Origin: Bacteroidota bacterium | Lineage (GTDB): Bacteria > Bacteroidota > Ignavibacteria > UBA10030 | Direction: 5' to 3' | DNA length: 64,000 bases | Assembly (NCBI GenBank): GCA_050015675.1 | Contig: JBEKAY010000014.1 | Location: 5,604-69,603 of the forward strand | Shown: one piece after another, positions 3,602 through 52,026 of the stretch | Layout of the letters: every line of letters begins with the position of its first letter | How positions within the stretch are numbered: the stretch's first letter is position 1 | Made by a program: the position numbers and the translations under genes | The notes under the pieces: model-generated | The model's input: only the letters and a program-made list of their open reading frames with translations | Told to the model about the DNA's origin: nothing | The model's database searches: none

Positions 3602-3842
3602 GGTCCATATTCTCCTATGTAAATATTCAGCAATGTCCTATTATAAGGCAAATAAATTTAAAGGATATTCAAAATATAACAATTTATCCGAAATCCCTCT
3701 TTATTGACTTTGGCAATTATACTAATTGTGCATAATATGCAAAAATTACCTCTATTTTCCAACGAGTTGTAATGGATATCGTAGTGCTCGACGGTGGGTT
3801 ATTCAGGGTAACGAATAGCAAGTTTCAACCAATCTGAAGAAG

Positions 3843-9887: not shown

Positions 9888-9902
9888 TAAAAAAGAGATC
9901 TC

Positions 9903-10829: not shown

Positions 10830-11581
10830 TAAAACTGGTAAAGAAAGATTTGAAATTATTCTTCAGTAATAAGCGCGACATGTTGCTGACTTTTGCAATA
10901 CCTATTATAATTAGTACCCTATTTGCCCTTGTTTTTGGTAAAATTGGCAACTCCCACGGAGATGATTCACTAGGGCTGATCCAATCAGTGGCAGGTACTG
11001 CAATTTTAATGCTTTTGTTTTCAGTTGCAGAGATAGGCGGAAGTCTTTTGGATGAAAAGCAGGAAGGTATGTTAAAGAAATTATTGTGCTCACCGCTGCG
11101 ATCTAACCATATCCTCTATGGCAAAATGGTATTTGCAAATATCATTTCCATTGCTCAGCTGTCAATCATGTTTGTTTACGCTAAGCTGGCTTTTGGCTTG
11201 GATATTATGCATCATCTTCCTGCTCTTGTGCTCATGATTTTTGTAACAGCATATGCCTGTTCCAGCTTTGGGATATTTCTTGCATCATTTGCCACATCAC
11301 ACCAACAGGTTCAGAAGGTTTCTACGCTCATTGTCCTTATCATGAGTGCCATTGGAGGCAGTATGATCCCTGTATTTATAATGCCGGAATTTATGCAAAA
11401 GATTGCTGTCATTTCGGTTAATTATTGGGGGGTTCAGGGTTTTTATGACATCTTCTGGAGGCTTCTTCCATTGACAGATATTACATTTTTATCAAGAATT
11501 ATTGTTTTAATTGGCATTGGAACTTTTTTGAATTTCATTGCTCTTCAGATGTTCAAGAAAAATATTTTAAAAATTGTTTAA
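10826..11581 (+). CDS. ABC-2 family permease
   Basis: Six predicted hydrophobic helices, translationally coupled to the ATPase gene. Confidence 0.8.
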   Translation: MIKLVKKDLKLFFSNKRDMLLTFAIPIIISTLFALVFGKIGNSHGDDSLGLIQSVAGTAILMLLFSVAEIGGSLLDEKQEGMLKKLLCSPLRSNHILYGKMVFANIISIAQLSIMFVYAKLAFGLDIMHHLPALVLMIFVTAYACSSFGIFLASFATSHQQVQKVSTLIVLIMSAIGGSMIPVFIMPEFMQKIAVISVNYWGVQGFYDIFWRLLPLTDITFLSRIIVLIGIGTFLNFIALQMFKKNILKIV

Positions 11582-11610
11582 ATGGCAAATGTGAACATTC
11601 TTATTTCTAA

Positions 11611-11996
11611 AGCAGCGGGGGTCCCGCTTGGGAAACAGCGGGATTTCGTTCCGTCAACTTACGTTGTCGGAACTCAAGAGGAAAAGAATATTCCGTGGCA
11701 CTCACAAAACACAAAATCCCCATAAAGGGGATTTTGATTTTGTAGCGGGGGAGCGCCACACCACGCAGGGAAAGATTCAGCTTCCTGCTTTTCCGCTTGA
11801 AATAAGCACTTCTAATTGGGAAGAGTCTTCATTTTCATTTAAAAACAAGTCCCGCCATCCTTTTCGGCTTATAGAATTGCCAAATAATAGTATTCAATCG
11901 TCTGCCGGGATCTCCCTAATTACTGAAATATATTTAGACTGACAATGGAGGACAGATTATGGTTCTCACTATCCTTCATCCAATATTTTGTTATTT
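11611..11996 (+). repeat. Copy B of the ~400-nt repeated unit (leader of the nuclease gene)
   Basis: See copy A. It includes the hairpin TCCCGCT-N8-AGCGGGA and a terminator-like hairpin ATCCCC-ATAA-AGGGGAT followed by TTTTGATTTT. It ends in the RBS GGAGGAC and the start of the 11959 CDS. Confidence 0.7.
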
Positions 11997-12882
11997 TTGG
12001 TCATTATTATATCTCTTGTTCATTATTGATATTCAATTACCATTGAAAACCTTCATCCATTCAATATCGCTAGTTCTGATAGCAGTATTCATCTTTGGTT
12101 GTCCTTCCAAGCATGAGGTACCAATTACAGTATCTCTCGTATCTACATCAAGGAGTGAGCACCTAGTCATGGGTAATCCAAGTGGTGCGGTCGACAGTGT
12201 TTCATACTCAAATAACTATCTGATGGAAAAGCCTCAATATGTTATCTCGTACAGTAGAGACCGTGGAATCCCGAATTGGGTGGCCTGGCACTTGGATAAT
12301 ACCTGGCTTGGCAATGTTCCACGAAAGGATACATTCCGTCCTGACAGCACATTGCCGGAGAATTGGTATCATGTGAGAAAAACAAGCTACAATAGAAGTG
12401 GTTACGCCCGGGGGCATCATTGTCCCTCTGCAGATCGAACGAATACGGTCGAGGATAACTCAGCTACCTTTCTTATGACCAATATGATGCCTCAAGCAGC
12501 AAACAATAATTCCGGACCGTGGGAAAAGCTTGAAAAGTATTGTCGTAATCTCGTCAAGCAAGGTAAAGAATTATACATATATGCCGGAGGATATGGCTCT
12601 CAAGGTACTATCGATTATGGCCATGTTACAGTTCCATTGCATACCTGGAAAGTTATTTTGGTATTAGATAATGGTGATAATGATTTAAGCCGAGTTACAA
12701 CAACAACTCGTCTTATCGGTGTTGATATGCCAAATAGTAATGATCAAATCAGCAGGACAGACGATTGGAAATCCTATAGAATCTGTGTCGATAGCATTGA
12801 GGCTCGTACCGGTTTTAATTTCTTTTCAAATGTCCCAGATTCTGTTCAAGCAGTAATTGAAAGCGTTATTGATAGTCTCTGA
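11959..12882 (+). CDS. Membrane-anchored/secreted DNA/RNA non-specific endonuclease (Serratia NucA / Endonuclease_NS family)
   Basis: N-terminal hydrophobic anchor. Beta-beta-alpha-Me active site GYARGHHCPSADR, plus TNMMPQAANNNSGPW carrying the metal-binding Asn. Confidence 0.85.
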   Translation: MVLTILHPIFCYFWSLLYLLFIIDIQLPLKTFIHSISLVLIAVFIFGCPSKHEVPITVSLVSTSRSEHLVMGNPSGAVDSVSYSNNYLMEKPQYVISYSRDRGIPNWVAWHLDNTWLGNVPRKDTFRPDSTLPENWYHVRKTSYNRSGYARGHHCPSADRTNTVEDNSATFLMTNMMPQAANNNSGPWEKLEKYCRNLVKQGKELYIYAGGYGSQGTIDYGHVTVPLHTWKVILVLDNGDNDLSRVTTTTRLIGVDMPNSNDQISRTDDWKSYRICVDSIEARTGFNFFSNVPDSVQAVIESVIDSL

Positions 12883-12968: not shown

Positions 12969-13451
12969 ATGAAAATACTTAAATATTTATTTCTTACATC
13001 CGCTGCCATTTTCATTTTATTGCAGCTTATCTACTATCCTCAAATGCCGGATAATGTCGCGATTCATTTCAATGCGCGAGGAGAAGTTAACGGCTGGATA
13101 CCTAAAAGTTTAAATCTTATGCTGAGTTATTTAATCATCTTTATTATCACCTTGTCATTCGGTGGTGTACCATATATTCTAAGAAACATTTCACCAGATA
13201 TGATTAATGTTCCAAAGAAAGAATATTGGCTTAGTGGTAACAACAAAGATAAATTGATTTCGATTCTATCGAGTCACATGTATTTCATCGGTTTAGTGAC
13301 AAATCTTTTTTTGATCGTTATATTTCATCAATTATATGAATTCAATATTCGAGCTGTTGATAAGGTATCCGTTGTTATTATGATCCCATATGGTGTTTTT
13401 CTTTTGGGTTCGATCGTCCATTTATTTGTTCGATTAAATAAACGTACTTGA
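12969..13451 (+). CDS. DUF1648/SdpI-like small membrane protein
   Basis: Four hydrophobic helices. N-terminal YPQMPDNVAIHFNARGEVNGW matches the DUF1648 pattern from memory. RBS GGGAGGGG. Confidence 0.45.
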   Translation: MKILKYLFLTSAAIFILLQLIYYPQMPDNVAIHFNARGEVNGWIPKSLNLMLSYLIIFIITLSFGGVPYILRNISPDMINVPKKEYWLSGNNKDKLISILSSHMYFIGLVTNLFLIVIFHQLYEFNIRAVDKVSVVIMIPYGVFLLGSIVHLFVRLNKRT

Positions 13452-13562: not shown

Positions 13563-13632
13563 CCGTCTCCCCGACGGCAATAGTTAGCCTCCCTTAGCCC
13601 TGGCGTCTGGTAGTGCGTCAGGGCTATTATTA
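13563..13632 (+). repeat. Structured ~70-nt element, copy 1 (left bracket of the 13.6-24.1 kb block)
   Basis: CCGTC-TCCCC-GACGG hairpin, then TAGTTAGCCTCCCT, then hairpin AGCCCTGGCG-N-CGTCAGGGCT, then ATTATT. Nearly identical to 24116-24186. Confidence 0.75.
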
Positions 13633-14015
13633 TTCAAAAAAAGCATTTTGATGGATCATCAAATTCCTGCATATATCTCATTAAATAACTCCTCTTCCTT
13701 AAAACAAGAAATTCCTTATTTTAAGGAGTTAACAGACAGAGTTAAAATAAATCACATTATTCCAGGAAACAGGAAATGGAAGATACTGTTAGAATATCTC
13801 GTCAGAAACTTTACGATCAGGTCTATTCGATAATTTGATTTTGCATATTACATAGCATAAATTGAAACATATTATTAAGATAATAGTAGCTATCAATGAT
13901 AATTTTATAAGCGTTAGAAAGAGTAACAAATAATTCTATTACTTTGCAATATTTTCGTTTTTATAGTTATCACTAAAATTATCTATTAACAAATAACTCA
14001 AAAAGTGAGGGAATT

Positions 14016-14651
14016 ATGAAGATATATTTTATTAGACATACTGAAGCCGATGATGATAGAAGAGATAGCTTCGGTGGCATTGCAGACGATCCCTTAATAG
14101 AAAGTGGAGAAATCTATGCAAAAAAAGTTGGTAAAGCGTTGGTTAATAAAAGAATCAATATAATTTATTCGAGTCCGTATATACGCGCCAAGAAAACAGC
14201 TGAACTTATTAATGAATCTCTAAATATTAAAATCGTTGAGATTTATAATCTTAGGGAAAGAAATTCTTACGGGGTGTTAAGTGGTATAGAAAAAGTAAAA
14301 GCAAAAGAATTATTCCCTTCAATAATGCTTCGCATAGATCAAATGAAAAGAAAGGGATTGAAACCATCGAACTCTATAGAGACTCTTCCTGGCGCTGAAA
14401 TATATTTAGATTTGTTACTAAGAGTTAAAGATGCTATTGAACAAATTCTACGAGAGTGCGATAATTTAAAGTTTAACAATATAGTGATCGTGACGCATGG
14501 TGGGATTGCGTCAGCTTTTTTTAACGATCTTCTTAATATTCCTATAGAGCTTGAAAAGGGTGAAATTATTGTTTTAGAGGGTGATTCATTAAATGAATTA
14601 AAGATAAATGAGAAAGAAACAAAAGATATCAAGAAAGAGTTGGTTTCATAG
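14016..14651 (+). CDS. Histidine phosphatase superfamily (phosphoglycerate mutase-like) protein
   Basis: N-terminal IRHTEAD (RHG-type motif) and a second catalytic His in IVTHGGI. Confidence 0.8.
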   Translation: MKIYFIRHTEADDDRRDSFGGIADDPLIESGEIYAKKVGKALVNKRINIIYSSPYIRAKKTAELINESLNIKIVEIYNLRERNSYGVLSGIEKVKAKELFPSIMLRIDQMKRKGLKPSNSIETLPGAEIYLDLLLRVKDAIEQILRECDNLKFNNIVIVTHGGIASAFFNDLLNIPIELEKGEIIVLEGDSLNELKINEKETKDIKKELVS

Positions 14652-14768
14652 TAATTATTTCAATTTGTTTGAAAAATAAAAGAATTTGGAACTAAATTAT
14701 TATATTTATTTTATAAGAAAACTTTTCCTCTGTCTTCCCTTATTAAGTTTTCCGAAAAAAGAACATTA

Positions 14769-17700
14769 TTGATGAATGGAAACTTGTTTATGAAGCATAA
14801 TGTTAAAACTCAAATCATAAATACTAGAAGAATAAGTAGAAATCAGCAGGTAGATACTCCTTGCATTGTTTTTCTTACTGATTTTTGGGGAAGACAAAAT
14901 GGTGGAATCAACTCTTTCAATATTGACCTATGTAAATCCGTAGCAAAAATTGTTCCTCTTCCATACAAGATTATTTGTATTGTCACAGAAGCCGACCAGA
15001 GTGCCATAAATGATGCGCGAAAGGCCGGAGTTCTTCTTATCCCAGTCAATATTAGTAGTCATAAATTAGAAATTGATTATGCAGATAAAGTATTGCGTGT
15101 ATTACGGAATAATTCAGTTAATCATGTAGAGTGGTGGATAGGACATGATACAATATCAGGAAAGATAGCACTAAAATTACAAGAATTGCATAAAGATGGA
15201 AAGTCAAAAGTCTCTATTATCCATCATATGGATTACGAAGCCTATAAAATATTTCAAAATGAAAAATCAGAAGTTGTATTTAAACGACATATAAATCAAG
15301 AACATTTGTTCTCAGGGGCAGATAAAGTATTTGCTGTAGGACCGTATTTAGAAGATTCGGCAAAAGATTTATGTGGCAAAGATGTTACTTGCTTAATACC
15401 AGGATTAACAGAAGATGTCAAAGGAAAACCTACTCCAAATGTCTTCAAGGCTATCACTTTTGGAAGATTGGAAAAAAAAGGCGATAAAGTCAAACAACCA
15501 TTGCTTGCGATAAAAGCATTAGGAGTTGCCCATAGGACATATACAAATACAATAGATAATCCTATTCCAATTAAGATGTTGCTTATTGGAGTAGATAAAA
15601 ATTCAAAAAGAATAGAAGAATTGCAGAAAATTGGGAGAGAATTTGCTGAACGAGAAATACCAATTATTGCTATTCCTTATTTGAATGATCGAGGGCAATT
15701 GCTAAATGAACTAAGTAAGTGTAATGTCTGTATGATGTTATCTCTTCATGAAGGTTTTGGGTTGGTCGGTTGGGAATCCATTGCAGCTGAAGTTCCTGTT
15801 ATAATATCACGTAATAGTGGCCTGTACAAATTTTTGTATCAATTAGGTGGTATGGCTCTAGGGTGTATTCATCATGTTGATATTACGGGTATTGAGAGCA
15901 AAGATATTAAGAGTGTCTCAGAATCTCTGTTACGAGTCTTTACTAATCCGAGCAAAAGTAAAAATGATATTCAACAACTTAAAAATTTACTATTACAAAA
16001 AGGTTATACTTGGGACGGTACGGCGCAGGTATTTCTTGATTCTCTCGGAATTCCGGTAAAATTAAAAATTAATAAATCTCCCTATAAATTCCTTAGTTCC
16101 TATGAAGAAAGTGATCAATCCATTTTCTTTGGTAGAGGGAAAGAGATCAATGATTTCTGGCATCAAATCCAAGGTAGCAATTTGATGTTACTCTTTGGGA
16201 AATCCGGCGTTGGCAAAACATCGTTTCTCCGCGCTGGAATTATTCCAAAGTTATATGAAGAAAATTTCGAACCAATTTATATCAAATGTAATAATCACCC
16301 TCTTAGAGCAATTTGGGAAAAATCATATGAACTCGTGCAGAGGTATCACAAAAAAATAGCGACTAAAATTATTTCAGATAATTTAAATAGCGACAGACTA
16401 ATTGATTTTTTGGGTGAACTTAATGCTAAATCAAATAAAACCATTGTAATAATTGTTGATCAATTTGAGGAATTTTTTATCCTTCCTGATGAAAGGACGA
16501 GGAGAGATTTTATCCAATTTTTGACCAAGCTATCAGAAAATAATGATATTGGAATCAAGATTATCCTATCGTTCCGAGAAGATTTTTTTGTAGAAATGCA
16601 TGATATCGGGAAAAGCATTAATTCCATATTTAATTTTAGGTTTCGATTAAAGGAATTGTCTATTGAAAAAGCTAAAGAGTCGATTCTTGGTCCCCTTAAA
16701 TATTCTCATTTATCTATTGAGGAGGGTCTAATAGATACTATTGTAAACAGTCTTTCTAAGAAAAAATTGATTGAACCAACTCAATTACAGATTGTTTGTT
16801 TTACTCTATATAATCGAATGAGCGGAAGTGTAAACGAGATTAGAATTGAGGATTACGAAGATTTAGGTGGTGTTAAGGGTATATTAACTGATTATGTTGA
16901 CTATGCTCTTGAACCTTTTGATAGTTCTCAAAATGAAATAGCAAAAGAAATAATGAAGTCGATGGTTTCATCAAGAAATACAAAGGTGCCATTATCTAGG
17001 GCGGAAATCAATGAATTAAAATATTCTTCTAATTGCATAAAATACTCCGAAGTAAATAATATTCTGAACGAATTAGTAGATCGTCGATTAGCAACTAGAA
17101 CCGTTGATTCAGGTAATGAAATCTTTGAATTGACTCATGAATATTTGATAAATAGGATAAAAGATTGGATCGATGCTGAACAGTACAAAATAAAAGAGGC
17201 TCAGGATATATTAAGACAAGAAGAAAATAATTGGAAAAATCACAAAACGCTTATGGCGTTAACGATTTTTAGATATGTAAATAATTATAAAGATAAACTT
17301 ATCCTCGATAGTTATAAAAAGGGATTATTATTACGTACGGCGATCGAATATGACCTAGATTTAGATTATTGGGTTAAATTAAACGATGGTAATTTAAAAT
17401 GTCTTGAATTTATTTTTGATGCTTTGAATTCAAAAAATAATAACGTGATACGAATTGCCTGTATTATATTGCTTCAGTTTGATCTTGAAATAAAAGATGT
17501 CAACCGAGTGCTAGATATTATTGAGGAAATTGGCAATCCGAATGTATTGCACAGAATAAGAGAAATTAACCGTACGAATAATAGAATTGGTGAGAGCCTT
17601 ATTGTTAGAGTAAAAAATAGAATCGAAAAAAGACAATTAAAGAATATGGTGAAAGTAGAAGGTGGAAAATTCTTAATGGGGAGAGATAAGATAGAAATTG

Positions 17701-18299
17701 ATAAAATAATTGGTCAGGGCGTGCCGTCTAAATGGTTTGTGAATGAATATCCAAAACGAGAATTATTCGTAGGCTCTTTTCTTATCGATAGATATCTTGT
17801 TACAAATCTTGAATATCAGGAATTTAATACAAGCCATATATATCCAGAAGGAGATGAAAAAAAACCAGCAACAAATGTTAGCTGGGTTGATGCAAAAAAA
17901 TATGCTGAATGGCTCAATAAGGATTTACCGACTGAAGAAGAATGGGAAAAAGCTGCTCGAGGGATAGATGGAAGATTATTTCCATGGGGAAATAAATGGG
18001 ATCCAAAGAAATGTAACACTAGACTTTCAGGAATTGGTGGAAAAACAGATATTGATAAGTATCCAGATGGTCAAAGTCCTTATGGCTGTTATGATATGGC
18101 CGGTAATGTGTGGGAGTGGACCAAAACTTTTAAGGAAGATAATGATACGGCCATAGTTAAGGGTGGCTCTTGGAGTAAATTCGGTATTCTGCCTTGGTGT
18201 TCTTATCGTTTCGATTATGAAGTTAGAGAAGGACAACAGAATGTAGGATTTAGGTGTGTTTTACGAATGCCTACCATCACAAAAAGGGAAAAGAAGTAA
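14769..18299 (+). CDS. Three-module fusion: GT4 glycosyltransferase, STAND-type P-loop NTPase and FGE/SUMF1 domain
   Basis: GT-B E-x7-E motif EGFGLVGWE. The nSTAND-like entry PYKFLSSYEESDQSIFFGRGKE...LLFGKSGVGKTSFLRAGIIP carries Walker A, with Walker B in IVIIVDQFEE. C-terminal FGE motifs: NVSWVDAKKYAEWLNKDLPTEEEWEKAARG, GCYDMAGNVWEWT and KGGSW. Confidence 0.8.
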   Translation: MMNGNLFMKHNVKTQIINTRRISRNQQVDTPCIVFLTDFWGRQNGGINSFNIDLCKSVAKIVPLPYKIICIVTEADQSAINDARKAGVLLIPVNISSHKLEIDYADKVLRVLRNNSVNHVEWWIGHDTISGKIALKLQELHKDGKSKVSIIHHMDYEAYKIFQNEKSEVVFKRHINQEHLFSGADKVFAVGPYLEDSAKDLCGKDVTCLIPGLTEDVKGKPTPNVFKAITFGRLEKKGDKVKQPLLAIKALGVAHRTYTNTIDNPIPIKMLLIGVDKNSKRIEELQKIGREFAEREIPIIAIPYLNDRGQLLNELSKCNVCMMLSLHEGFGLVGWESIAAEVPVIISRNSGLYKFLYQLGGMALGCIHHVDITGIESKDIKSVSESLLRVFTNPSKSKNDIQQLKNLLLQKGYTWDGTAQVFLDSLGIPVKLKINKSPYKFLSSYEESDQSIFFGRGKEINDFWHQIQGSNLMLLFGKSGVGKTSFLRAGIIPKLYEENFEPIYIKCNNHPLRAIWEKSYELVQRYHKKIATKIISDNLNSDRLIDFLGELNAKSNKTIVIIVDQFEEFFILPDERTRRDFIQFLTKLSENNDIGIKIILSFREDFFVEMHDIGKSINSIFNFRFRLKELSIEKAKESILGPLKYSHLSIEEGLIDTIVNSLSKKKLIEPTQLQIVCFTLYNRMSGSVNEIRIEDYEDLGGVKGILTDYVDYALEPFDSSQNEIAKEIMKSMVSSRNTKVPLSRAEINELKYSSNCIKYSEVNNILNELVDRRLATRTVDSGNEIFELTHEYLINRIKDWIDAEQYKIKEAQDILRQEENNWKNHKTLMALTIFRYVNNYKDKLILDSYKKGLLLRTAIEYDLDLDYWVKLNDGNLKCLEFIFDALNSKNNNVIRIACIILLQFDLEIKDVNRVLDIIEEIGNPNVLHRIREINRTNNRIGESLIVRVKNRIEKRQLKNMVKVEGGKFLMGRDKIEIDKIIGQGVPSKWFVNEYPKRELFVGSFLIDRYLVTNLEYQEFNTSHIYPEGDEKKPATNVSWVDAKKYAEWLNKDLPTEEEWEKAARGIDGRLFPWGNKWDPKKCNTRLSGIGGKTDIDKYPDGQSPYGCYDMAGNVWEWTKTFKEDNDTAIVKGGSWSKFGILPWCSYRFDYEVREGQQNVGFRCVLRMPTITKREKK

Positions 18300-18312
18300 T
18301 TAACAAGTTCAT

Positions 18313-18762
18313 ATGCGTCAAATGACAACGACATCAGCGGGTGGCATAATCCTGCGACATGAATCAGATATATATTATGTGGTAGTAGTAGAATTAGTAA
18401 ACAATGTTGAGAAGAAATGGGCGCCAATCCTGCGTCAACTTCCTAAGGGACGATGTGAAAAAGGTGAAACGTTTGAAGAAACCGCTTTGAGAGAAGTATT
18501 TGAGGAAACTGGCTATAAAACAAAAATTATTTCAAAAGCCGGAGAAGCAAAATGGTCTTATTATAGAGAAGATGTTTTTTGGGAGGAAACTGTGCATTAT
18601 TTTTTTATGACCCCACTTTCACTTTCAGCTGAACAGCATGATCGAGAATTTGACTATGTCCAATGGATGCCTATAGAAGAGGTTTGCGAAAAGTTATCTT
18701 ATCCAGAAGAACGCCAATTGATAAATCACATCTTTAACCATAACTCACACAAATTTGTTTAG
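18313..18762 (+). CDS. NUDIX hydrolase
   Basis: Complete Nudix box GRCEKGETFEETALREVFEETGY (G-x5-E-x7-REUXEEXGU). Confidence 0.85.
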   Translation: MRQMTTTSAGGIILRHESDIYYVVVVELVNNVEKKWAPILRQLPKGRCEKGETFEETALREVFEETGYKTKIISKAGEAKWSYYREDVFWEETVHYFFMTPLSLSAEQHDREFDYVQWMPIEEVCEKLSYPEERQLINHIFNHNSHKFV

Positions 18763-18773
18763 GTTTAGGAGTT

Positions 18774-21179
18774 GTGTTGAATCAATCTAAAGTTGAGGTA
18801 CTCAGTCTATTAACTAAAGTACTTAAAAGATCTATAGTTAATCCATTCTTTTCCTTTTCCGTAAATCAATGGTATAATAATCAAACTGAAATAATCTCTC
18901 AATTGAGATCATTCTTTAATGGAGATCAAATAATTATTATACGAAGTTCGGCCTCTGATGAAGATAATACAATCAATTCTTTAGCTGGTCATTATTGTAG
19001 TGTTCCTAACGTCCATTCTCAAGATACTTATCAGCTGTGTCATGCAATAGATAGAGTAATCAACTCCTATAAACAACCGAATAGGTCTTTAAAAGCTGAT
19101 GATATGCTAATTGCACAATTACAATTGTGCAATGTGACAAAAAGTGGTGTGATATTGACAAGGGAGTTTCAAAAAGGACTTCCATATTATGTCATTAATT
19201 TCGATGATCAAACATCCAAGACTAATATAGTCACGAGCGGAGGTGCTAGTAAGGCGTTATGGATTGCAAAATGGCAGAATATTCAAGAAATGCCAAATGA
19301 GTGGCAAAATATTATTCTAAGTATTCAGGAGATAGAAAATATATACCCTCATAGAGTTCTTGCTATCGAATTTGCATCAGATATAAATAATAATGTACAT
19401 ATATTCCAAGTGAGAGAAATTCATATTCGCAATCCCATCTCTTCTACAAATGAAACATCGATAGAGTATAAATGTCATGCTGAATTAATTTCTCAACTCA
19501 AGGATCAATTCTGTTTTTACGGTGATTGTAGCAGTGTCCTACCTGGTGATTATACGATCTTTTCTGATATGTCGGACTGGAATCCAGCAGAAATTATTGG
19601 AAGTAGACCGAATAATTTCGATTATTCGCTTTATAGATATCTCGTAACACAATCGGTATGGAATGAAGCTCGAGTATCTTTGAATTATATAGATGTATCT
19701 CCTTTTGAGTTAATGCAATTGATTGGAGATAAGCCATATATCGATACACGCGTATGTTTTAATTCGTTAACGCCAGCAAACCTTAATCAATCTCTAAGGC
19801 CTAGACTTATTAATTATTACCTTAATAAACTTCGTCGTTCTCCACAATTACAAGATAAAGTCGAATTTGAGGTTGTTTTTACTTGTTATGATTCTTCTTT
19901 TTCCTCTCGGGAAGATGACCTTCTGGAAAGTGGTTTTTCACATTCTGAAATACAAGAGTTAAAAAATAATCTTTTATGCTTCACAAATAATTTGTTGAAG
20001 AATACAGCTAACATCCTATCATCTGATTTTAGAAATATCAATAATTATGACAATTATTTAAATGGATTCATAGATAAACCAGCCCCACTTTCATATAAAC
20101 AACTGTTTCAAAAATCATTTGCTCTTTTAGAAAATTGCCGAAACGAAGGTGTGTATATATTCTCGAGAATTGCACGACTTGCGTTCGTTTATCAAGCCTT
20201 TTTAAGAGGATTTCAAAAAATTGATATTGTCGATCGTTCTTTTATAAATGCGATTATGAATTCGATAAATTCCATTACGACTGATTTCATGAATGATTTG
20301 ATTTTGTTAAATAGAGGTGATATTCAGGAAAAGGAATTTCAAAATAAATATGGTCATCTACGCCCTGGCATGTATAATATTATGGCTCAGCGTTATGACT
20401 ATGATTTGAATATATTTAAGAATAAGGATCTTTCGACATTAAAGATCAGAGAAAAGACGCCTTTGAAAATCACTACTGATATTTCATCGAGGATTGAACG
20501 TGCCTTATTGCATGAAAATATAAGCTGTAGTACAGATATGATGATTAGATATATTGAACAAACTATTCAATACCGCGAATATTCTAAATATATATTTTCA
20601 AAAGCTGTCTCAAGCGCAATTGAAACAATTGTATTAGCATTCGAGAAGTTAGATATCCCGCGTCAAGATGCTGCAATGTTGGATATTAGTATGATCAAAA
20701 ATATATTGAATTTAAAAAATATAGATAAAATAAATATTAGGAAGATGTTTTATGAAATGATTGATATGAACCGAAAAACAAAAAATGCATATGAACGCAT
20801 TGTTTTACCATCGGTAATCACTGATTCAAATGATTTATCGAATGTGCCCTTTTATGCTTCATCGCCAGTATTTGTTACTAATAATGTAGTTGAAGGAGAT
20901 GTGTTGCAATTGGATATAGGAATGATTAACTGTCATAATAAAATAGATGGGAAAATTGTATTGATTGAAAATGCAGATCCCGGATATGATTGGATATTTG
21001 CTCGAAATCCAAGAGCATTAGTAACTAAATATGGTGGTGTAGCTTCTCATATGGCAATCCGTTGTTATGAATTGTCTCTGCCAGCTATCATTGGTTGTGG
21101 CGATATGTATTTTGAAAGAATTAAAAATGCATTCAAAATTAAAATTGATGGTAATTCACATCAAATAATTACATTCTGA
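18774..21179 (+). CDS. PEP-utilising / pyruvate-phosphate-dikinase-like kinase (PPDK_N ATP-grasp plus phospho-His swivel domain)
   Basis: N-terminal IIIIRSSASDEDNTINSLAGHY (PPDK_N signature RSS..ED...S.AG). C-terminal mobile domain TKYGGVASHMAIRCYELSLPAIIGCG carrying the phospho-carrier His. Confidence 0.8.
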   Translation: MLNQSKVEVLSLLTKVLKRSIVNPFFSFSVNQWYNNQTEIISQLRSFFNGDQIIIIRSSASDEDNTINSLAGHYCSVPNVHSQDTYQLCHAIDRVINSYKQPNRSLKADDMLIAQLQLCNVTKSGVILTREFQKGLPYYVINFDDQTSKTNIVTSGGASKALWIAKWQNIQEMPNEWQNIILSIQEIENIYPHRVLAIEFASDINNNVHIFQVREIHIRNPISSTNETSIEYKCHAELISQLKDQFCFYGDCSSVLPGDYTIFSDMSDWNPAEIIGSRPNNFDYSLYRYLVTQSVWNEARVSLNYIDVSPFELMQLIGDKPYIDTRVCFNSLTPANLNQSLRPRLINYYLNKLRRSPQLQDKVEFEVVFTCYDSSFSSREDDLLESGFSHSEIQELKNNLLCFTNNLLKNTANILSSDFRNINNYDNYLNGFIDKPAPLSYKQLFQKSFALLENCRNEGVYIFSRIARLAFVYQAFLRGFQKIDIVDRSFINAIMNSINSITTDFMNDLILLNRGDIQEKEFQNKYGHLRPGMYNIMAQRYDYDLNIFKNKDLSTLKIREKTPLKITTDISSRIERALLHENISCSTDMMIRYIEQTIQYREYSKYIFSKAVSSAIETIVLAFEKLDIPRQDAAMLDISMIKNILNLKNIDKINIRKMFYEMIDMNRKTKNAYERIVLPSVITDSNDLSNVPFYASSPVFVTNNVVEGDVLQLDIGMINCHNKIDGKIVLIENADPGYDWIFARNPRALVTKYGGVASHMAIRCYELSLPAIIGCGDMYFERIKNAFKIKIDGNSHQIITF

Positions 21180-21226
21180 CAATGGTTGAATGTAATTTTT
21201 CATCATGACTTAAAAATTGGGCTAAA

Positions 21227-22012
21227 ATGAAAGCAATAATCTTAGCAGCTGGAGAAGGAACAAGACTTCATAAGTATACTAAAGGTATGCCAAAATGTAT
21301 GCTTAGTATAGGTGGTGTCTCGATAATAGAACGTCAAATAGACATTTTAAGAGATTTTGGAATAGATGACATTATTATTGTTAGAAATAAACATTTTAAT
21401 GAGTTAAATATCAAAGGTGTCCGATATTATATGAACAATATGCCCAACACCAATATGGTATATTCTCTTTTTTGCGCTGAAAAAGAGTTGGACACTGATC
21501 TTATTATCACTTATGGGGATATACTTTATGATAAGAGTGTAATAAAAAAGATTATGGATTCAAATTCATATGATATTTCTGTGGTCGTTGATATGACGTG
21601 GATTAAGTACTATACTGCACGTTTTACAGATCCATATGAAGATGCAGAAAGTTTAGTTTTAGAAAATGATGGACGAATATTAAACATTGGCGAATTCCAT
21701 CCTTCACCTGAACAGATCCAAGCTCAATATATTGGGGTGATTAAACTTTCTAAATCAGGGAGTGAATACTTTAATAGGTTTTATAATACTGCAAAAGAAA
21801 TATTTTGGAATAAACCATGGATAAGAAATAAATTGTTTCAACAGATATATATGACGGATTATTTGCAGGCAATTATTGACAATGGAATACCTATATATAG
21901 CATTCCAATCGAAGGAGGCTGGTTAGAATTCGATACTGAGAAGGATTACGAAAATGTGATAAAATGGCACGCAGATGGTACACTTAGAAATTATTGTTCA
22001 ATTGAATATTAA
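21227..22012 (+). CDS. Nucleotidyltransferase (NTP_transferase, LicC/cytidylyltransferase-like)
   Basis: MKAIILAAGEGTRL (G-x-G-T-R) N-terminal signature. Size ~260 aa. Confidence 0.85.
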   Translation: MKAIILAAGEGTRLHKYTKGMPKCMLSIGGVSIIERQIDILRDFGIDDIIIVRNKHFNELNIKGVRYYMNNMPNTNMVYSLFCAEKELDTDLIITYGDILYDKSVIKKIMDSNSYDISVVVDMTWIKYYTARFTDPYEDAESLVLENDGRILNIGEFHPSPEQIQAQYIGVIKLSKSGSEYFNRFYNTAKEIFWNKPWIRNKLFQQIYMTDYLQAIIDNGIPIYSIPIEGGWLEFDTEKDYENVIKWHADGTLRNYCSIEY

Positions 22013-22028
22013 TAATAAATAATAATTT

Positions 22029-22859
22029 ATGATTGCGTCAAAATATTCATTATATGATTCCTCTTTTGTTGAAGAGTTGTTTTTATATTCTGCAAAGATA
22101 ATTGAAGTTCTATACGCAAATAATAAGATAAGTGACGGACAAAGAATCGCTTTAGAATGGGCCGAAGAAATTTCTGATCGACTTGAATTGGAAAGAACTG
22201 ATAATTGGAAGTTTTTTAAAAGAAATTTATTATCTAAATGGTTTAATAAACCCGAAAGTAAAAGATTTTTACCAGGATGGGAATATGATGAAGTTCGACT
22301 TTATATCAACTCATTTAAGGGTAAAACGTTGCGTGTGTCAAAATTTCCAAACAATATCGCTTGTCATTCTGAAAGTATAATTTTATCAAATGATATTAAA
22401 AATAAGTGGCACGGAATTATTTCAGAGATAGACAATTCAATTCCAATCGAGATATTTCCTGAGTCATCTTCTAAGAAGAGCATATGTTTTAGAAGGTATT
22501 CAACTGCATTTAATGAAGAAGTTATTTATGAGGCGAGTCTAGGTCAAGCTACTTATGCATTTGAAAGTGCTAATGGGTCATATCCAATCGTTTCTGCAAC
22601 GAAGTCGAGAGAAAAATATTTATACAATAACAGAATTACTGGAAAGCATAAGAATAAATATTTTTTAACTATAAGGAAAAAATTACAGAAATTAATTGAT
22701 TTGTATGATTGGTCTCTCTCTACAAAATCATTTGGCATTTGTAGATCATTAGGGATGGATTGGATTGCAATTGAGGGCTATTATGAAGTTGATAAATCAA
22801 ACGATATGATTGTTGTAGATATAGATATTCCCTTCGATTTTATTTTTATGCTAAAATAA
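22029..22859 (+). CDS. Hypothetical protein, last gene of the + strand operon (possibly a degenerate ATP-grasp half)
   Basis: Long ORF beginning 16 nt after the previous stop. Weak resemblance of ICFRRYSTAFNEEVIYEASLGQ and IAIEGYYEVDKSNDMIVVDID to PPDK_N/ATP-grasp strands. No firm family call. Confidence 0.45.
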   Translation: MIASKYSLYDSSFVEELFLYSAKIIEVLYANNKISDGQRIALEWAEEISDRLELERTDNWKFFKRNLLSKWFNKPESKRFLPGWEYDEVRLYINSFKGKTLRVSKFPNNIACHSESIILSNDIKNKWHGIISEIDNSIPIEIFPESSSKKSICFRRYSTAFNEEVIYEASLGQATYAFESANGSYPIVSATKSREKYLYNNRITGKHKNKYFLTIRKKLQKLIDLYDWSLSTKSFGICRSLGMDWIAIEGYYEVDKSNDMIVVDIDIPFDFIFMLK

Positions 22860-23108
22860 TGGAAATATTTGTTAGTAGTGTTATAATAGTTTCGTTTTAA
22901 AAGGGGCAATAAAACAAACTAAGGTTTCAGTAATATCTCCAACAGAAATTCAACTTCTGTCTTATGACGGCAAAGAGTATGAACCAACAGATAACAAAAA
23001 ATTCAAGATAATAAATGAGAAAAGTATCTGCCTGCACCACGACTATTTGTGTCTAATAGATTTTAAATTGACCAAAATACATAAGCTTTTTGGGGAGAGA
23101 TCATTATT

Positions 23109-23891
23109 CTATAATGACACGGTCTTTTCTTCTCGGGATTTTGTATTAATGGTGAGAATAGTATGATTGGGGATCTCAATCCATATAATATCAGGAATGT
23201 CAAGCTTCTGGGAGCAAATGAACTTTGTTGTGCCAGATATATCTTTTCCTTGAAAAAGTGTATAGTATGTATCACACAGGATCTTGCGGTTAGCATCTAC
23301 ATCCCGATCATTTGCTTCTCGCATCGCAAAGAGTATATTGCCATCCGACATTAAAATATTTGCAGCACTGTATTTCATAGAGTGCAGTTTCCTAGCCCCT
23401 TCTTCAAATCCATCTGAGATCCCCTTATTTTTCTTTATTGTTTGTATAAACCAAAAAAACAACATTTCTGAATCGGTTTCTCCTCTGATGCTTGTAACAA
23501 ACTTTGGTTCAATAGGAAGATTCTCCTTGTGATTAAATATAGTGCCATTGTGGCAAAAAACGTAAGAATCAAAAACATATGGTTGGGTATTCTCCATGGC
23601 TTTTTTGCCACGAGATGCCTTCCGCACATGTCCTATTAGTAATGGTGTGTTCAGTTTTGCTAATTGGGAAATTGCAGAAACATATTTTGAACTTTCATAT
23701 GCTGCCGATGGTTCTTTTTCTAAAAATGTAATTTGATTGTCCCTATATGCAACTAAACCCCATCCATCTTTGTGACCAGGTAGAATCCCAGTCGGAACAT
23801 TCCCGATATTCGATAACATGCCGAATTTTTGTAGTGAGGCCTCAACGACTCTCTCATCTGTAATTCCGATAATTGCAAGCAATCTGCACAT
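23109..23891 (-). CDS. Class II (Ntn) glutamine amidotransferase-like amidohydrolase (YafJ/GATase_4-6 type)
   Basis: Starts MCRLLAIIG (Cys2 nucleophile after Met removal), with HKDGWG and HVRKAS..... motifs. Convergent with the 14016-22859 operon. Confidence 0.8.
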   Translation of the reverse strand: MCRLLAIIGITDERVVEASLQKFGMLSNIGNVPTGILPGHKDGWGLVAYRDNQITFLEKEPSAAYESSKYVSAISQLAKLNTPLLIGHVRKASRGKKAMENTQPYVFDSYVFCHNGTIFNHKENLPIEPKFVTSIRGETDSEMLFFWFIQTIKKNKGISDGFEEGARKLHSMKYSAANILMSDGNILFAMREANDRDVDANRKILCDTYYTLFQGKDISGTTKFICSQKLDIPDIIWIEIPNHTILTINTKSREEKTVSL

Positions 23892-24115: not shown

Positions 24116-24186
24116 CCGTCTCCCCGACGGCAAATAGTTAGCCTCCCTATAGCTCTGGTGTCTGGTAGTGCGTCAGGGCTATTATT
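24116..24186 (+). repeat. Structured ~70-nt element, copy 2 (right bracket)
   Basis: Same two hairpins as copy 1. The two C-to-T differences inside the second stem (AGCTCTGGTG) keep pairing as G-U in a + strand RNA. Confidence 0.75.
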
Positions 24187-24372
24187 TTAACCTGATACAT
24201 CTCTATATAAAATTGATTTTACCCCTTCATTCGGTTACATTATTGGCACAACTCTTTACCATGCTAGATACACTTCGAGTAGAATTCAATAATTAGATGA
24301 GATTATTGGACGAAGTGTACGCTGGGAAAGATTTGTGATGAAGAAATTCTTTTTAGTGGGAGTTAACACATT

Positions 24373-27300
24373 ATGCCACGTATCTTCGATAATATAGAAC
24401 AATCACTTCTTCCTGCATTAAAGGAGACACTTGATCTTTCAGATCGTTCAGACTTCTGCGTTGGTTACTTCAATCTTAGAGGTTGGAAGCAGCTTGATTC
24501 GTGCATTGAAAATTGGTCAGGCGGTGAAGGTAATTGCTGTCGTTTATTGGTAGGTATGCAGCGATTGCCTGCTGAAGAATTACGTGACGCGCTCAGTTTA
24601 GTTAAACACGATGGAGAGATTGATAATCAAACCGCTCTCAAATTGAAGAAGAGATTAGCAGAAGAATTTCGAGAACAGCTTACCTACGGTGTCCCGACGA
24701 ATCAAGATGAAGAGGGACTGAGAAAACTTGCTCATCAAATTAAGTCTAAGAAGGTTGTGGTAAAACTTTTCCTTCGTCACCAACTCCATGCGAAGCTTTA
24801 CCTATGCTTTAGAACCGATCCCATCAATCCGATCATTGGATATCTTGGTAGTAGTAATTTGACACTTGCCGGACTTTCGCATCAAGGTGAATTGAATATT
24901 GATGTCCTCGACAATGATGCAGCTAAGAAATTGTCAAAATGGTTTGAGGACCGGTGGTCGGACAATCGTTGTATTGACATTTCGGATGAACTGGTTAAGA
25001 TTATAGAAGAAAGCTGGGCACGTGAAGAACTGATTCCTCCATATCACATCTATATCAAGATGGCATACCATCTTTCGCAGGAAGCACGTGCCGGGCTATC
25101 AGAATTTAAACTTCCGAAAGATTTTGGTAATAAGCTCTTTGAATTCCAGACAGCTGCTGTAAAGATCGCTGCACACCATCTCAACACGCGCGGCGGAGTG
25201 CTCATCGGTGATGTGGTCGGACTTGGCAAAACCCTCATGGCAACTGCTTTGGCACGAGTCTTTGAAGACGATCAAGACCTTGAAACACTTATTATTTGCC
25301 CTAAGAACCTTGTGAAGATGTGGGAAGATTATCGCGATAAATATCGTTTGAGAGCAAAGATACTTTCTCTTAGTCAGGTGACAAATGAGCTTGTAGACTT
25401 GCGTCGTTATCGTCTCATATTAATTGATGAAAGCCATAACCTTCGTAACCGAGAAGGAAGACGATATCGAGCAATTCAAGAATACATAAAACAGAACGAA
25501 TGCAAGTGCATACTTCTTTCAGCTACTCCGTACAACAAAACATATGAAGACCTTGGCAGTCAACTTCGGCTTTTCATTCCGGAAGATAAAGACCTTGGTA
25601 TCCGTCCCCAGGTTTATATCAGTTTGGATTTGAATGGAAGTGAAACGGAGTTTATCCGCAAACATCAATGTTCTGTTCGTTCCATAGCTGCATTTGAAAA
25701 GAGCCACCATGCAGACGATTGGCGTGAATTAATGCGTCTTTTTATGGTCAGAAGAACTCGAAGCTTTATCCAAGAGAACTATGCAGAGACCGATCCCATA
25801 GCAGGGAAAAAATATCTTGTGTTTGAAGACGGCACAAAATCATATTTCCCAATTCGCCATCCGAAGACTGTCAAATTCAAAATCAATGAAGGTGATCAGA
25901 ACGATCAATACGCAAAATTATATTCAGAAGATGTTGTTGCAATTATTGATGGACTGATTCTTCCTCGGTATGGATTAGGGAATTATGTAGTGCCATCTCC
26001 ACACGATCCGCCGACACAATCAGAGGTTCGCATTCTTGATGATCTCTCACGTGCTGGTAAACGTCTTATCGGTTATTGTCGAACGAACCTGTTCAAGCGA
26101 TTGGAGAGCAGCGGACAGGCATTCGTTCAATCGATTGAACGCCATATTCTCCGTAATTATATCTATGCGTACGCTATCGAAAACAATTTGCCGTTGCCCA
26201 TTGGTTCACAAGATGCAGGTATGCTCGATACAAGAATTACCGACGAGGATGCTGAAAAAGGCACAAAAAGTTTCTTTGAAGATGATGATGATAACAATGA
26301 GCAAACTGAAAAAATCCTCCGGACCGAAATGGATTTCAAGCAACGCGCAGAACAAGTTTATAGGGATTATGAGAAACAATTTAAAAGTCGATTTGATTGG
26401 ATTCGTCCGCACCTCTTTATTAATGTTCTTCAAAACGATCTCTTAAATGATGCTAAAAAGCTATTGAAGATTCTCGAGAAATGTTATCGGTGGGATCCCG
26501 AAAGAGATGCTAAATTAGATGAACTCTGTAAGCTCATTACAAAGAAGCATCCGAATGAAAAGGTTCTTGTCTTTACACAATTTGCGGACACAGTCAGATA
26601 TTTGGAAGAACAACTCCAAGCAAGAGGTATAAAAAAAGCAAAAGGTGTCACTGGTGATTCCAGCGATCCAACATTATTGGCTTGGAAATTCAGTCCGGTG
26701 AGCAACGATAAACAGAGCAAGTTTAAACCCGAAGATGAATTGCGTGTACTTGTTGCAACAGATGTTCTCAGTGAAGGTCAAAATCTTCAAGATGCACATA
26801 TCGTTGTCAATTATGATTTACCATGGGCGATCATTCGTCTCGTTCAACGTGCTGGTCGTGTGGATCGTATCGGACAGAAAGCAAGTGATATTAAATGCTA
26901 TTCATTCCTACCTGCCGAAGGAGTCGAACGTATTATCCGTCTTCGTGCGCGCGTTCGCCAGAGATTACAGGAGAACGCTGAAGTCGTAGGAACTGATGAA
27001 GAATTCTTTGAAGATGACAAAAACGAAGAGACAATTCGAGACCTGTTCACCGAAAAATCCGGTATTCTCGATGGAGATTCTGATGATGAAGTCGATCTCG
27101 CTTCTTACGCTTATCAGATATGGAAAAATGCAGTCACAGGTGACCCGGAACTCCAGAAAATTGTTCCTGATATGGCTCCAGTCGTCTATTCGACTAAGCA
27201 GTTCACAGTGAATGAACGACAACCGGATGGAGCACTGGTTTATATGCGAACCGCCGAAGGAAATGACGCTCTCGCGTGGGTTGATAAAAAGGGCGATAAT

Positions 27301-27750: not shown

Positions 27751-27761
27751 TTATAAAAACT

Positions 27762-33592: not shown

Positions 33593-34092
33593 ATATGTTA
33601 CCTTGGGACAAACGACCAATAGAAATCGCAAATCTTTTTAATCCTGCCTTTTTAGCGCTGCTTTTACACGAAGGATCGTTAGCATATTATAATGAGATTC
33701 AAAAAGGATTGCCGTTTGAATTGGCGCCCTTGCTAGTCACATTACCGCTTCACAAAGAGACGAGAGATATTATGCCAAAGAAAATATCTACTCAGATGCA
33801 TGCATGGTTATTGGACCATCCTGAGATTAAAATCAATTGTTCCAAAAGAATCCGCAATATGAATCCTTATATACTCGAATCAATAGCATTTGGTTTAAAA
33901 ACAGGAATTATCAACATAGATGAAGATGGAAAAATTAACTCGATCGGTAGAACCGCTCTTTCAAAGAAGTTGAAATGGAATGCAGAGCTAGATCCAGCAA
34001 AATGTCTTCAGAGAGCCACCTTTTTAGGACGATGGTTTGCATACGCCGGTGATGTCTCGACCGTGTACATTATGTGGGGGATAACACCATGA
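33589..34092 (+). CDS. ABC-3C middle component
   Basis: Small (~165 aa) helical protein sandwiched by overlaps between the effector and the DUF3732 ATPase. This is the canonical position of the MC protein. Confidence 0.5.
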   Translation: MNMLPWDKRPIEIANLFNPAFLALLLHEGSLAYYNEIQKGLPFELAPLLVTLPLHKETRDIMPKKISTQMHAWLLDHPEIKINCSKRIRNMNPYILESIAFGLKTGIINIDEDGKINSIGRTALSKKLKWNAELDPAKCLQRATFLGRWFAYAGDVSTVYIMWGITP

Positions 34093-36035: not shown

Positions 36036-36114
36036 AGAGAAATAAACTATTGATGGAATATTAAATTATTTATCGTACGTGGTAAAACAACAATTATTAA
36101 GCAAGGTGTTTGAT

Positions 36115-52015: not shown

Positions 52016-52026
52016 TCTAACTTTAA

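Follow-up and report, generated by a model that had tools for sequence, protein, structure and literature searches.

A candidate metabolite-coupled STAND conflict cassette in a Bacteroidota defence island

Bacterial nucleotide-binding leucine-rich repeat receptor (NLR)-like STAND proteins are thought to be single-gene sensors of phage proteins. A locus in a Bacteroidota genome (class Ignavibacteria, assembly GCA_050015675.1) raises the question of what such a protein does when its gene sits within an operon of small-molecule enzymes. We analysed a stretch of 64,000 nucleotides (nt) of contig JBEKAY010000014.1 (positions 5,604 to 69,603), hereafter the window, in which seven genes at window positions 14016 to 23891 form the cassette studied here. 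The explanation that best accounts for the observations as a whole is a mobile multi-gene NLR-like STAND conflict system, most likely antiphage, in which the STAND protein would be coupled to a metabolite of the neighbouring enzymes; judged from sequence, we give this reading a probability of about 0.45. One part of it, that an NLR-like executioner forms the core of a conflict system here, is highly probable, and an initial annotation that had read the locus as a conflict system is supported.

Gene content of the cassette

The seven open reading frames (ORFs), their strands and the five gaps between the co-directional genes (117, 13, 11, 47, and 16 nt) were exactly as first described, and the domains then assigned from the sequence were all recovered by Pfam. 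The genes, with the domains of the fusion protein, are as follows.

14016..14651, + strand: histidine phosphatase, branch 1, 211 amino acids (aa); Pfam His_Phos_1, 3.5e-28; RH and THGG motifs
14769..18299, + strand: fusion of glycosyltransferase family 4 (GT4)-conflict, nSTAND1, and formylglycine-generating enzyme (FGE)-sulfatase domains, up to 1176 aa; Pfam
14871..16028, + strand: GT4 effector domain of the fusion, aa 35 to 420; GT4-conflict PF20706, 2.9e-72
16080..17246, + strand: nSTAND1 NTPase module of the fusion, aa 438 to 826; PF20703, 5.7e-57
17637..18260, + strand: FGE-sulfatase domain of the fusion (C-type-lectin fold), aa 957 to 1164; Pfam, 6e-40
18313..18762, + strand: NUDIX hydrolase, 149 aa; Pfam, 6e-19; NUDIX box at aa 46 to 67
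18774..21179, + strand: PPDK-like kinase, 801 aa; Pfam PPDK_N and PEP-utilizers swivel domain
21227..22012, + strand: LicC-like NTP (cytidylyl) transferase, 261 aa; NTP_transf_3, 2.7e-15
22029..22859, + strand: divergent ATP-grasp protein, 276 aa; no Pfam family; AlphaFold2 (AF2) model
23109..23891, - strand: class II N-terminal nucleophile (Ntn) amidohydrolase, GATase_4/EgtC-like, nucleophile Cys2; GATase_4, 8.6e-21

The Walker A, Walker B, E-x7-E, NUDIX box, His759, Cys2, and phosphatase RH motifs are all intact in the window. The fusion ORF was called from a TTG codon, and the alignment of homologues suggests that the true start lies a few codons downstream, for example at Met8. The length of 1176 aa is therefore an upper bound and the 117-nt gap a lower bound.

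Domain architecture of the STAND fusion protein

The fusion protein has the tripartite layout of effector (GT4), NTPase (nSTAND1), and sensor (FGE). Its middle module is a STAND NTPase, as had been proposed: the nSTAND1 match scored 194.5 bits against a curated cut-off of 27.1, and both the Walker A motif (GKSGVGKT, aa 477 to 484) and the STAND-type Walker B motif (VIIVDQFEE, aa 560 to 568) are invariant in the homologue alignment. The GT4-conflict match scored 244.2 bits against a cut-off of 26, with the E-x7-E motif EGFGLVGWE at aa 328 to 336. Because the GT4 domain had no match by sequence in the PDB, a structural search was used. Its AF2 model showed a GT-B fold with a predicted local distance difference test score (pLDDT) of 90.6 and template-modelling (TM) scores of about 0.70 to 0.75 to MshA, BshA, and GlgM. 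The nearest structures were MshA, GlgM, BshA, and sucrose-phosphate synthase, with WaaG and PimA ranking lower. MshA, GlgM, BshA, and sucrose-phosphate synthase are retaining GT4 enzymes that take small phosphorylated acceptors.

The FGE domain is the best-conserved region of the protein, with a mean pairwise identity of 0.58 compared to 0.39 to 0.40 in the NTPase and helical parts and 0.27 in the linker. It lacks the catalytic cysteine pair of FGE and is predicted from its sequence to be a ligand-binding sensor. That this sensor is better conserved than the NTPase switch speaks for a ligand that does not vary and against a fast-evolving phage antigen. No PADLOC family matched the fusion protein at an E value of ≤0.01, so that there was no match to a named Avs/NLR protein.

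Conservation of the cassette across loci

Related loci were gathered by homologue searches with the fusion protein, the kinase, and the 276-aa protein, from gene neighbourhoods, and by a metagenome scan with the 276-aa family as the marker. The full set, consisting of the histidine phosphatase, an nSTAND1-FGE protein with its effector, the NUDIX hydrolase, the kinase, the NTP-transferase, a member of the 276-aa family, and an amidohydrolase, was present at 19 independent loci (the window, L001 to L004, L007, L008, L092, L093, L096, L102, L108 to L110, L112, L113, L115, L128, and L129). At least two phyla are represented, by a Chloroflexota metagenome-assembled genome (L008) and a Bacteroidota-labelled homologue (P0003). 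In two gene orders, the gene for the STAND protein lies in between enzyme genes, and the ORFs often overlap. The cassettes have integrases, ABC-3C, AbiEii, and type I restriction-modification (R-M) genes, extra SIR2 genes, caspase-like genes, RHS toxins, and conjugation genes as neighbours.

These data bear on the possibility that two independent defence units travel together, namely a single-gene Avs-like STAND protein, whose FGE domain would recognise a phage protein, and an unrelated enzyme operon. Defence genes do cluster nonspecifically in islands, and each part occurs without the other: more distant nSTAND1-FGE proteins have no enzymes beside them (L006, L009, L020, and L053), and the enzymes are found without a STAND gene. 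However, the 19 co-occurrences span divergent lineages in at least two phyla with conserved gene order. The STAND gene is placed between the histidine phosphatase gene and the other enzyme genes, with overlapping ORFs, and STAND and NUDIX domains are fused in some proteins. Furthermore, a STAND gene was present at 10 of the approximately 13 to 15 informative loci found by the 276-aa marker alone. We therefore consider two independent units improbable.

Enzyme modules without a STAND gene were found at no fewer than three loci (L095, L100, and L105), indicating that the enzyme module can probably act alone or with other partners. At L105 (10953 to 14106), a guanylate-kinase-like gene, a PNP_UDP_1+TPR protein of the nucleoside-phosphorylase effector type, and an NTP-transferase+NUDIX fusion were present. 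The module of L100 is located amid TrbI/CagX conjugation genes. The neighbours of the L095 module are uncharacterised; one of 470 aa (11014 to 12426, - strand) has no Pfam family and carries a von Willebrand factor A-like motif of the metal-ion-dependent adhesion site type (LIDCSGSMS). A common alternative partner in L095 and L100 was considered and rejected, as their convergent neighbours of about 460 aa are unrelated to each other.

A scan of species-representative genomes with the fusion alignment (FGE-domain peptides) returned generic FGE proteins; nSTAND1 was present only in L009, L020, L029, and L053, all without the enzymes. The 276-aa marker was absent from IMG/VR and PLSDB, and the kinase matches in phage and plasmid collections were limited to distant glycan-type relatives or one unverified contig. 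This contig (L125; GenBank MT837632.1, "Bacteriophage sp.," human faeces) encodes a 1,022-aa fusion of a kinase and a class I amidase at 619 to 3684; it has no STAND, NUDIX, or ATP-grasp genes, and its viral origin is unverified.

Predicted phosphoramidate-type enzymes

The kinase matches NCBIfam PRK05849 over its full length (5e-219; 729 bits versus a cut-off of 501), and relatives at an E value of approximately 1e-153 carry the JGI name "glutamine kinase." The window kinase keeps 104 of the 108 residues that are ≥95% conserved among 118 other family members, including the swivel His759 in the motif GGVASH. Many of its relatives are fused to a cytidylyltransferase, and one is fused to an APS-kinase domain as well. 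In a rough neighbour-joining tree of the kinases, all 10 members of known context in the window clade were accompanied by the enzyme module, and 8 of the 10 also had a STAND gene. The best PDB match of the NTP-transferase was the CTP:phosphocholine cytidylyltransferase LicC (1jyk, 1e-13). By analogy with Cj1416, it is predicted to be a phospho-X nucleotidyltransferase. A class I Peptidase_C26 amidohydrolase of the Cj1417 type is absent from the window, where the class II GATase_4 enzyme occupies its place.

In Campylobacter jejuni, Cj1418, Cj1416, Cj1417, and Cj1415 form cytidine diphosphate (CDP)-phosphoramidate 3'-phosphate from glutamine, ATP, and CTP, and the first step is the N-phosphorylation of the glutamine amide by Cj1418 (PMC11800397; PMC6429109). 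By sequence family, the kinase, cytidylyltransferase, and amidase of the cassette are the enzyme types of Cj1418, Cj1416, and Cj1417, and the predicted product of these three types, by analogy, is a nucleoside diphosphoramidate. The proposal that the cassette both makes and destroys a nucleotide-activated small molecule was made initially from the gene content; it is strengthened by this Campylobacter-type triad and by recurrent NUDIX fusions. In its present form, that the enzymes make and degrade a nucleoside diphosphate (NDP)-amidate-type nucleotide, we regard it as an even proposition.

The Campylobacter pathway serves a capsule, and surface-glycan decoration was the alternative offered by the initial annotation. 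In such a pathway, the enzymes would make a donor like O-methyl phosphoramidate (MeOPN), and the GT4 domain would build or decorate capsule, lipopolysaccharide (LPS), or teichoic acid. The role of the triad in C. jejuni capsule MeOPN speaks for such a pathway, as does the location of a distant triad in an exopolysaccharide (EPS) locus on a Vibrio alfacsensis plasmid. However, all 19 STAND-linked cassettes and the STAND-less variants adjoin defence or mobile genes rather than capsule, LPS, or teichoic-acid loci. No glycan-assembly genes adjoin any of them, and no genes for a glycan polymerase, flippase, export, or lipid carrier were present in any cassette examined. In addition, the GT4 domain is fused to a STAND ATPase and matches a "conflict" GT4 family, it is structurally nearest to small-molecule GT4 enzymes ahead of WaaG and PimA, and it is replaced by SIR2 in most relatives. 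The genomic context of defence islands and mobile elements thus largely rules out glycan decoration, which we regard as very improbable.

The Vibrio triad (L126; NZ_AP024168.1, 8434 to 14009) lies in an XrtA/PEP-CTERM EPS locus. It consists of a distantly related, cytidylyltransferase-fused kinase (29% identity), a gamma-glutamyl hydrolase, and a homologous NTP-transferase gene annotated as phosphocholine cytidylyltransferase family. The triad adjoins a gene of the CDP-glycerol glycerophosphotransferase family, and GT2 and GT4 genes are located in the same EPS locus. This locus suggests MeOPN-like phosphoramidate decoration outside Campylobacter, and it shows the glycan-type context from which the cassette clade differs.

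NUDIX hydrolase, histidine phosphatase, and ATP-grasp protein

The window NUDIX protein is nearest to Ap4A and NDP-X hydrolases. The histidine phosphatase, which is nearest to small-molecule phosphatases and is the first cassette gene in nearly all relatives, is predicted to be an eraser of a phospho-intermediate.

The 276-aa protein had been listed as an unknown. It has no Pfam family, as that listing implied, and it can now be read as a divergent ATP-grasp protein. The family is rare (119 representatives in 1.84 billion). The AF2 model (pLDDT, 85.7) showed an ATP-grasp fold, and the top Foldseek match was the ATP-binding domain of rifampin phosphotransferase (3e-5), followed by phosphoenolpyruvate (PEP) synthase, RimK, and Ddl; these matches had a probability of 1.0 yet modest TM scores of 0.33 to 0.40. 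The invariant residues of the family are K61, K64, R155, R156, E168, E249, D264, and D266. In L001, L002, L105, and about half of the members, it forms the C-terminal domain behind a swivel domain and a PEP-binding TIM barrel. The fold and these fusions point to a second ATP-dependent phosphoryl-transfer or ligase step. By analogy with the Campylobacter pathway, the protein may stand in for the missing Cj1415-type kinase.

A PEP-synthase-like gene with ATP-grasp, swivel, and PEP-binding barrel domains recurs beside or within the cassette (L128, 9507 to 12146; L092, 3 to 2423; L001, 16195 to 19182), a hint that some cassette versions use PEP as a phosphoryl donor or form it as a product.

Modularity of the cassette

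The effector domain is GT4 in the window, L001, L002, L004, and L096, and the remaining 14 cassettes have SIR2 instead. The two were swapped on STAND backbones that are 40 to 51% identical. The backbone closest to that of the window belongs to the SIR2-bearing L102, with 51% identity in nSTAND1 and 70% in FGE. A PNP_UDP-TPR protein accompanies one STAND-less variant. The same enzyme set thus accompanies GT4-STAND proteins, SIR2-STAND proteins, and a PNP-TPR protein, so that a role of the enzymes as mere donor suppliers for the GT4 domain was rejected as a general explanation.

The window and most SIR2 cassettes encode NUDIX in a gene of its own. In P0001 to P0009 and L102, it is joined to the C terminus of the STAND protein, and in L105 to L107 to the NTP-transferase. 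Most cassettes have a class I Peptidase_C26 amidase related to the gamma-glutamyl-GABA hydrolase PuuD. The class II GATase_4/EgtC-like amidase was found in the window, L007, L092, and L121, and it is co-directional with the operon in the latter three. Judged by enzyme family, this class swap is a nonorthologous displacement that preserves gamma-glutamyl-amide hydrolysis.

The window cassette is chimeric in a per-gene comparison of two lineages. Its histidine phosphatase has 59 to 65% identity to those of the GT4-type and L102-type cassettes and about 40% to those of the main SIR2 type, and its STAND backbone resembles that of the GT4/L102 lineage. In contrast, the NUDIX hydrolase (52 to 62% versus 30 to 35%), kinase, NTP-transferase, and ATP-grasp protein are closest to the main SIR2 type, and the class II amidase resembles the main SIR2 lineage. 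The end of the FGE domain appears to be the breakpoint; at this position, other GT4-type proteins bear the fused NUDIX domain. The two halves therefore recombine yet still form a cassette, i.e., they are interchangeable.

Rearranged "SIR2b" cassettes (L108 to L115) have an extra conserved protein of about 223 aa with two N-terminal transmembrane helices, encoded between the histidine phosphatase and STAND genes (L110, 6238 to 6909; L112, 5831 to 6505). This protein has no counterpart in the window and may be a membrane effector or anchor.

Proposed mechanism

We propose that the cassette has two halves. The first would combine a swappable effector, here a retaining GT4 enzyme, with an nSTAND1 ATPase switch and an FGE/C-lectin-fold ligand-binding domain, and the second would be the conserved small-molecule module. 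In this module, the PPDK-type kinase would N-phosphorylate the amide of L-glutamine via phospho-His759, the LicC-like nucleotidyltransferase would couple the phospho-product to an NTP, probably CTP, to give NDP-glutamine, and the gamma-glutamyl amidohydrolase (in the window, the convergent class II Ntn enzyme) would split off glutamate, which yields a nucleoside diphosphoramidate. The ATP-grasp protein would contribute an extra ATP-dependent (pyro)phosphoryl or ligation step. The products would be destroyed by the NUDIX hydrolase, acting on NDP-X, and by the histidine phosphatase, acting on the phospho-intermediate. In the coupling that we prefer, the FGE domain would bind the nucleotide as its ligand, which would be a second messenger or a guarded metabolite; the NUDIX hydrolase and phosphatase would set the activation threshold as erasers, and ligand-driven oligomerisation of the STAND protein would unleash the effector. 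That an NDP-amidate-type molecule is read by the FGE domain, with the two hydrolases as erasers, is a tentative suggestion. It is doubtful whether nucleoside diphosphoramidates or close phosphorus-nitrogen (P-N) derivatives, made from glutamine, ATP, and CTP, constitute a new class of immune small molecules, held at their level by dedicated writer and eraser enzymes and read by the FGE domain of an NLR-like STAND protein that would then fire its GT4 or SIR2 effector.

Alternatively, the enzyme module could itself be the weapon. A P-N nucleotide made from CTP (or a phage-specific NTP), ATP, and glutamine would poison replication or transcription, or a futile cycle with the NUDIX hydrolase and phosphatase would drain the nucleotide and glutamine pools, and the STAND protein would be a second co-regulated effector or a regulator rather than a metabolite receptor. 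The ddhCTP of viperin is a precedent for such a nucleotide poison. The modules without STAND (L095, L100, and L105) agree with this alternative, six enzymes are a heavy investment for a signal, and synthetic and hydrolytic enzymes are paired in the cassette. The Cj-type pathway also consumes ATP, CTP, and Gln (PMC11800397). However, many lineages have NUDIX joined directly onto the sensor end of the STAND protein, and the STAND gene is embedded in the enzyme operon in both gene orders. Moreover, the STAND proteins already bear the classic terminal effectors SIR2 and GT4, and their FGE domain is unusually conserved. A poisoning or pool-draining module is, in our view, rather unlikely.

Several points weigh against the metabolite-coupled conflict system that we favour. 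Defence, the enzyme activities and their substrates, the identity of the metabolite, its binding by the STAND protein, and the trigger are all predicted, and no phage-sensing step was identified among the parts of the cassette. Characterised Avs/NLR proteins sense phage proteins directly, with no metabolite needed. The enzyme module occurs at the STAND-less loci described above. The kinase tree is rough and has long branches, such that the cassette kinases are not demonstrably monophyletic, and the label "glutamine kinase" derives from family membership, an automated source name, and gene context. A Cj1415-type kinase, phosphoramidate transferases, and methyltransferases were not found among the window neighbours or the related cassettes. 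Finally, in other nSTAND1-FGE proteins, the FGE domain is diversified by diversity-generating retroelements as an antigen sensor (PMC10907252).

Relation to known systems

The initial annotation had presented the gene set as a candidate undescribed system. This holds for the enzyme-linked cassette; it does not hold for GT4-STAND and nSTAND1-FGE fusions as such, which Kaur et al. predicted in silico to be conflict proteins in 2021 (PMC8195603). The GT4-conflict and nSTAND1 Pfam models derive from that work (Kaur, Iyer, Burroughs, and Aravind, eLife), in which GT4 domains in fusions with STAND NTPases were predicted to be effectors and FGE-sulfatase ("FGS") domains to be lectin-like sensors of invaders. 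Its supplementary tables contain many nSTAND1+FGS proteins, one GT4+nSTAND1+ANK protein, and some FGS-STAND genes beside NUDIX. GT4+nSTAND1+FGS(+NUDIX) and SIR2+nSTAND1 proteins and PPDK-type kinase, nucleotidyltransferase, and amidase partners are not listed in its text or tables. The predicted conflict proteins of Kaur et al. share their domain families with the window fusion; what is new here is the enzyme module, with the chemistry predicted for it. In a 2024 PNAS study (PMC10907252), nSTAND1-FGE proteins were considered putative antigen sensors that had not been characterised experimentally. A 2026 preprint cites a catalogue of more than 90 Avs families, and the STAND protein by itself may be in it.

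PADLOC gave no system match, in agreement with the earlier impression that the gene set belongs to no named defence system; neither the fusion protein nor the enzymes were matched, apart from one weak hit of the NUDIX protein to a generic model. No publication that connects phage defence with glutamine kinase, phosphoramidate, or PEP-utilizing enzymes was found in literature searches. The enzyme-linked cassette, as a conserved unit, appears to be undescribed, and so does the phosphoramidate chemistry predicted for it.

The cassette shares with Avs systems such as the SIR2-STAND protein Avs5 a toxic N-terminal effector, a central STAND NTPase, a C-terminal sensor, swappable effectors including SIR2, and a location in defence islands. 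Unlike Avs, its NTPase belongs to the nSTAND1 clade, its sensor has an FGE/C-lectin fold rather than TPR, and this sensor, instead of being the most variable domain, is the best conserved. Its STAND gene sits within an operon of six small-molecule enzymes, and there is no PADLOC Avs match.

An adjacent PPDK-like kinase with a swivel histidine, a LicC-like cytidylyltransferase, and a gamma-glutamyl amidohydrolase are shared with the Campylobacter pathway to the MeOPN precursor, a likeness set by enzyme type and family rather than by direct comparison with the Cj sequences. In contrast to that pathway, the cassette has no capsule locus, Cj1415-type kinase, phosphoramidate transferase, or methyltransferases. 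The amidase of the window is of class II, not class I, and the ATP-grasp protein, NUDIX hydrolase, histidine phosphatase, and STAND link are additional.

CBASS, Pycsar, Thoeris, and type III CRISPR systems would share the proposed logic of a nucleotide-derived signal that is made, a ligand-sensing effector, and erasing hydrolases that are sometimes fused to the effector. However, CD-NTase, cyclase, TIR, and Cas10 synthase had no Pfam or PADLOC match in the seven genes. The predicted signal would also differ in being a linear NDP-amidate with a P-N bond, three steps from glutamine, and its receptor would be a STAND/NLR protein. Prokaryotic viperins and nucleotide-depletion defences likewise use island enzymes that turn CTP or other NTPs into unusual nucleotides, but the enzyme families of the cassette are unrelated to viperins, for which we know of no STAND partner.

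A cassette that wires a STAND protein to a full small-molecule pathway would bring a new logic, that of a metabolite-coupled NLR; if the proposal is correct, this would be the first metabolite-gated bacterial NLR. P-N-bonded nucleotides would be chemistry new to prokaryotic immunity. To our knowledge, the glutamine-kinase/cytidine-diphosphoramidate pathway is so far known from Campylobacter capsule decoration only, and the cassette would give this P-N chemistry its first role beyond capsule decoration, a second and widely distributed one. Further, the GT4-conflict effector and the FGE-fold "sensor" of nSTAND1 proteins, both of which as far as we know lack experimental characterisation, would gain their first testable context. 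The proposal is directly testable, since the cassette is compact (about 10.5 kb), has all its catalytic motifs intact, and lends itself to clear point mutants.

Flanking repeats and insertion

The direct repeats reported to bracket the block were recovered as two copies of a terminator-like hairpin.

13563..13633, + strand: left repeat copy, terminator-like hairpin with a 12-bp stem and a T-rich tail
24116..24187, + strand: right repeat copy, terminator-like hairpin

The repeat is about 73 nt long with roughly 97% identity between the copies and sharp edges, and the copies enclose all seven genes. The convergent amidohydrolase gene therefore travels with the operon. The left copy is probably the terminator of the upstream gene at 12969 to 13451. 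The right hairpin terminates nothing, because it is located past the 5' end of a minus-strand gene. This pattern fits an insertion of about 10.5 kb in which the upstream gene's terminator became duplicated. The GC content of the cassette is 0.31 to 0.35, compared to 0.40 to 0.43 in the downstream island. A dispersed REP-like (repetitive extragenic palindromic) element was rejected as the identity of the repeat, as only two copies were present in the 64 kb and no Rfam family matched. Insertion beside a tRNA gene was also rejected, as there are no tRNA genes within the window.

Defence island and other genes of the window

The defence island reported downstream of the cassette is indeed present and contains a type IIG R-M system with an HKD-SNF2 helicase, Lamassu, Gabija, ZacA/ZacC, and an SNF2-methylase. 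At 24373 to 31031, an HKD(PLD)+SNF2 helicase (PADLOC C3a139/DrmD-like) is followed by a full-length type IIG restriction-methyltransferase (1061 bits), and a 401-aa SEC-C plus MauJ-like protein is encoded at 31028 to 32233. Lamassu/ABC-3C (32372 to 36035) consists of LmuA (CTD7), an MC3 middle component, and LmuB (DUF3732 ABC ATPase), and Gabija (36918 to 40717) consists of GajA (956 bits) and GajB (698 bits). Between them is a 4-HFC-P synthase-like gene with a methanofuran-type aldolase fold (36079 to 36828), which looks metabolic and is odd in a defence island. ZacA (DUF6361) and ZacC (helicase), both with very strong PADLOC scores, are encoded at 41514 to 49319 together with a 614-aa protein of no family and a DUF2779 protein. 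A Siphovirus Gp157-like gene and a 1125-aa N6-methylase+SNF2 fusion (ZorD/DpdE-like) follow at 51512 to 55533. Further downstream, a 1677-aa protein encoded at 57628 to 62661 (- strand), in a segment of low GC content (0.31 to 0.32), had a weak nSTAND3 match only and is possibly a further STAND-type gene.

Upstream of the cassette, the window contains a hybrid two-component regulator, which together with the naming of a close homologue of the fusion protein points to a probable Bacteroidota host. The window sequence belongs to a metagenome contig (JGI 3300038424) and is present in an independent Logan assembly as well. A 562-aa transglutaminase-core+FGE-sulfatase protein is encoded directly upstream of an ABC-2 transporter pair (8199 to 11581); it is the second FGE-domain protein in the window and is unrelated to the cassette.

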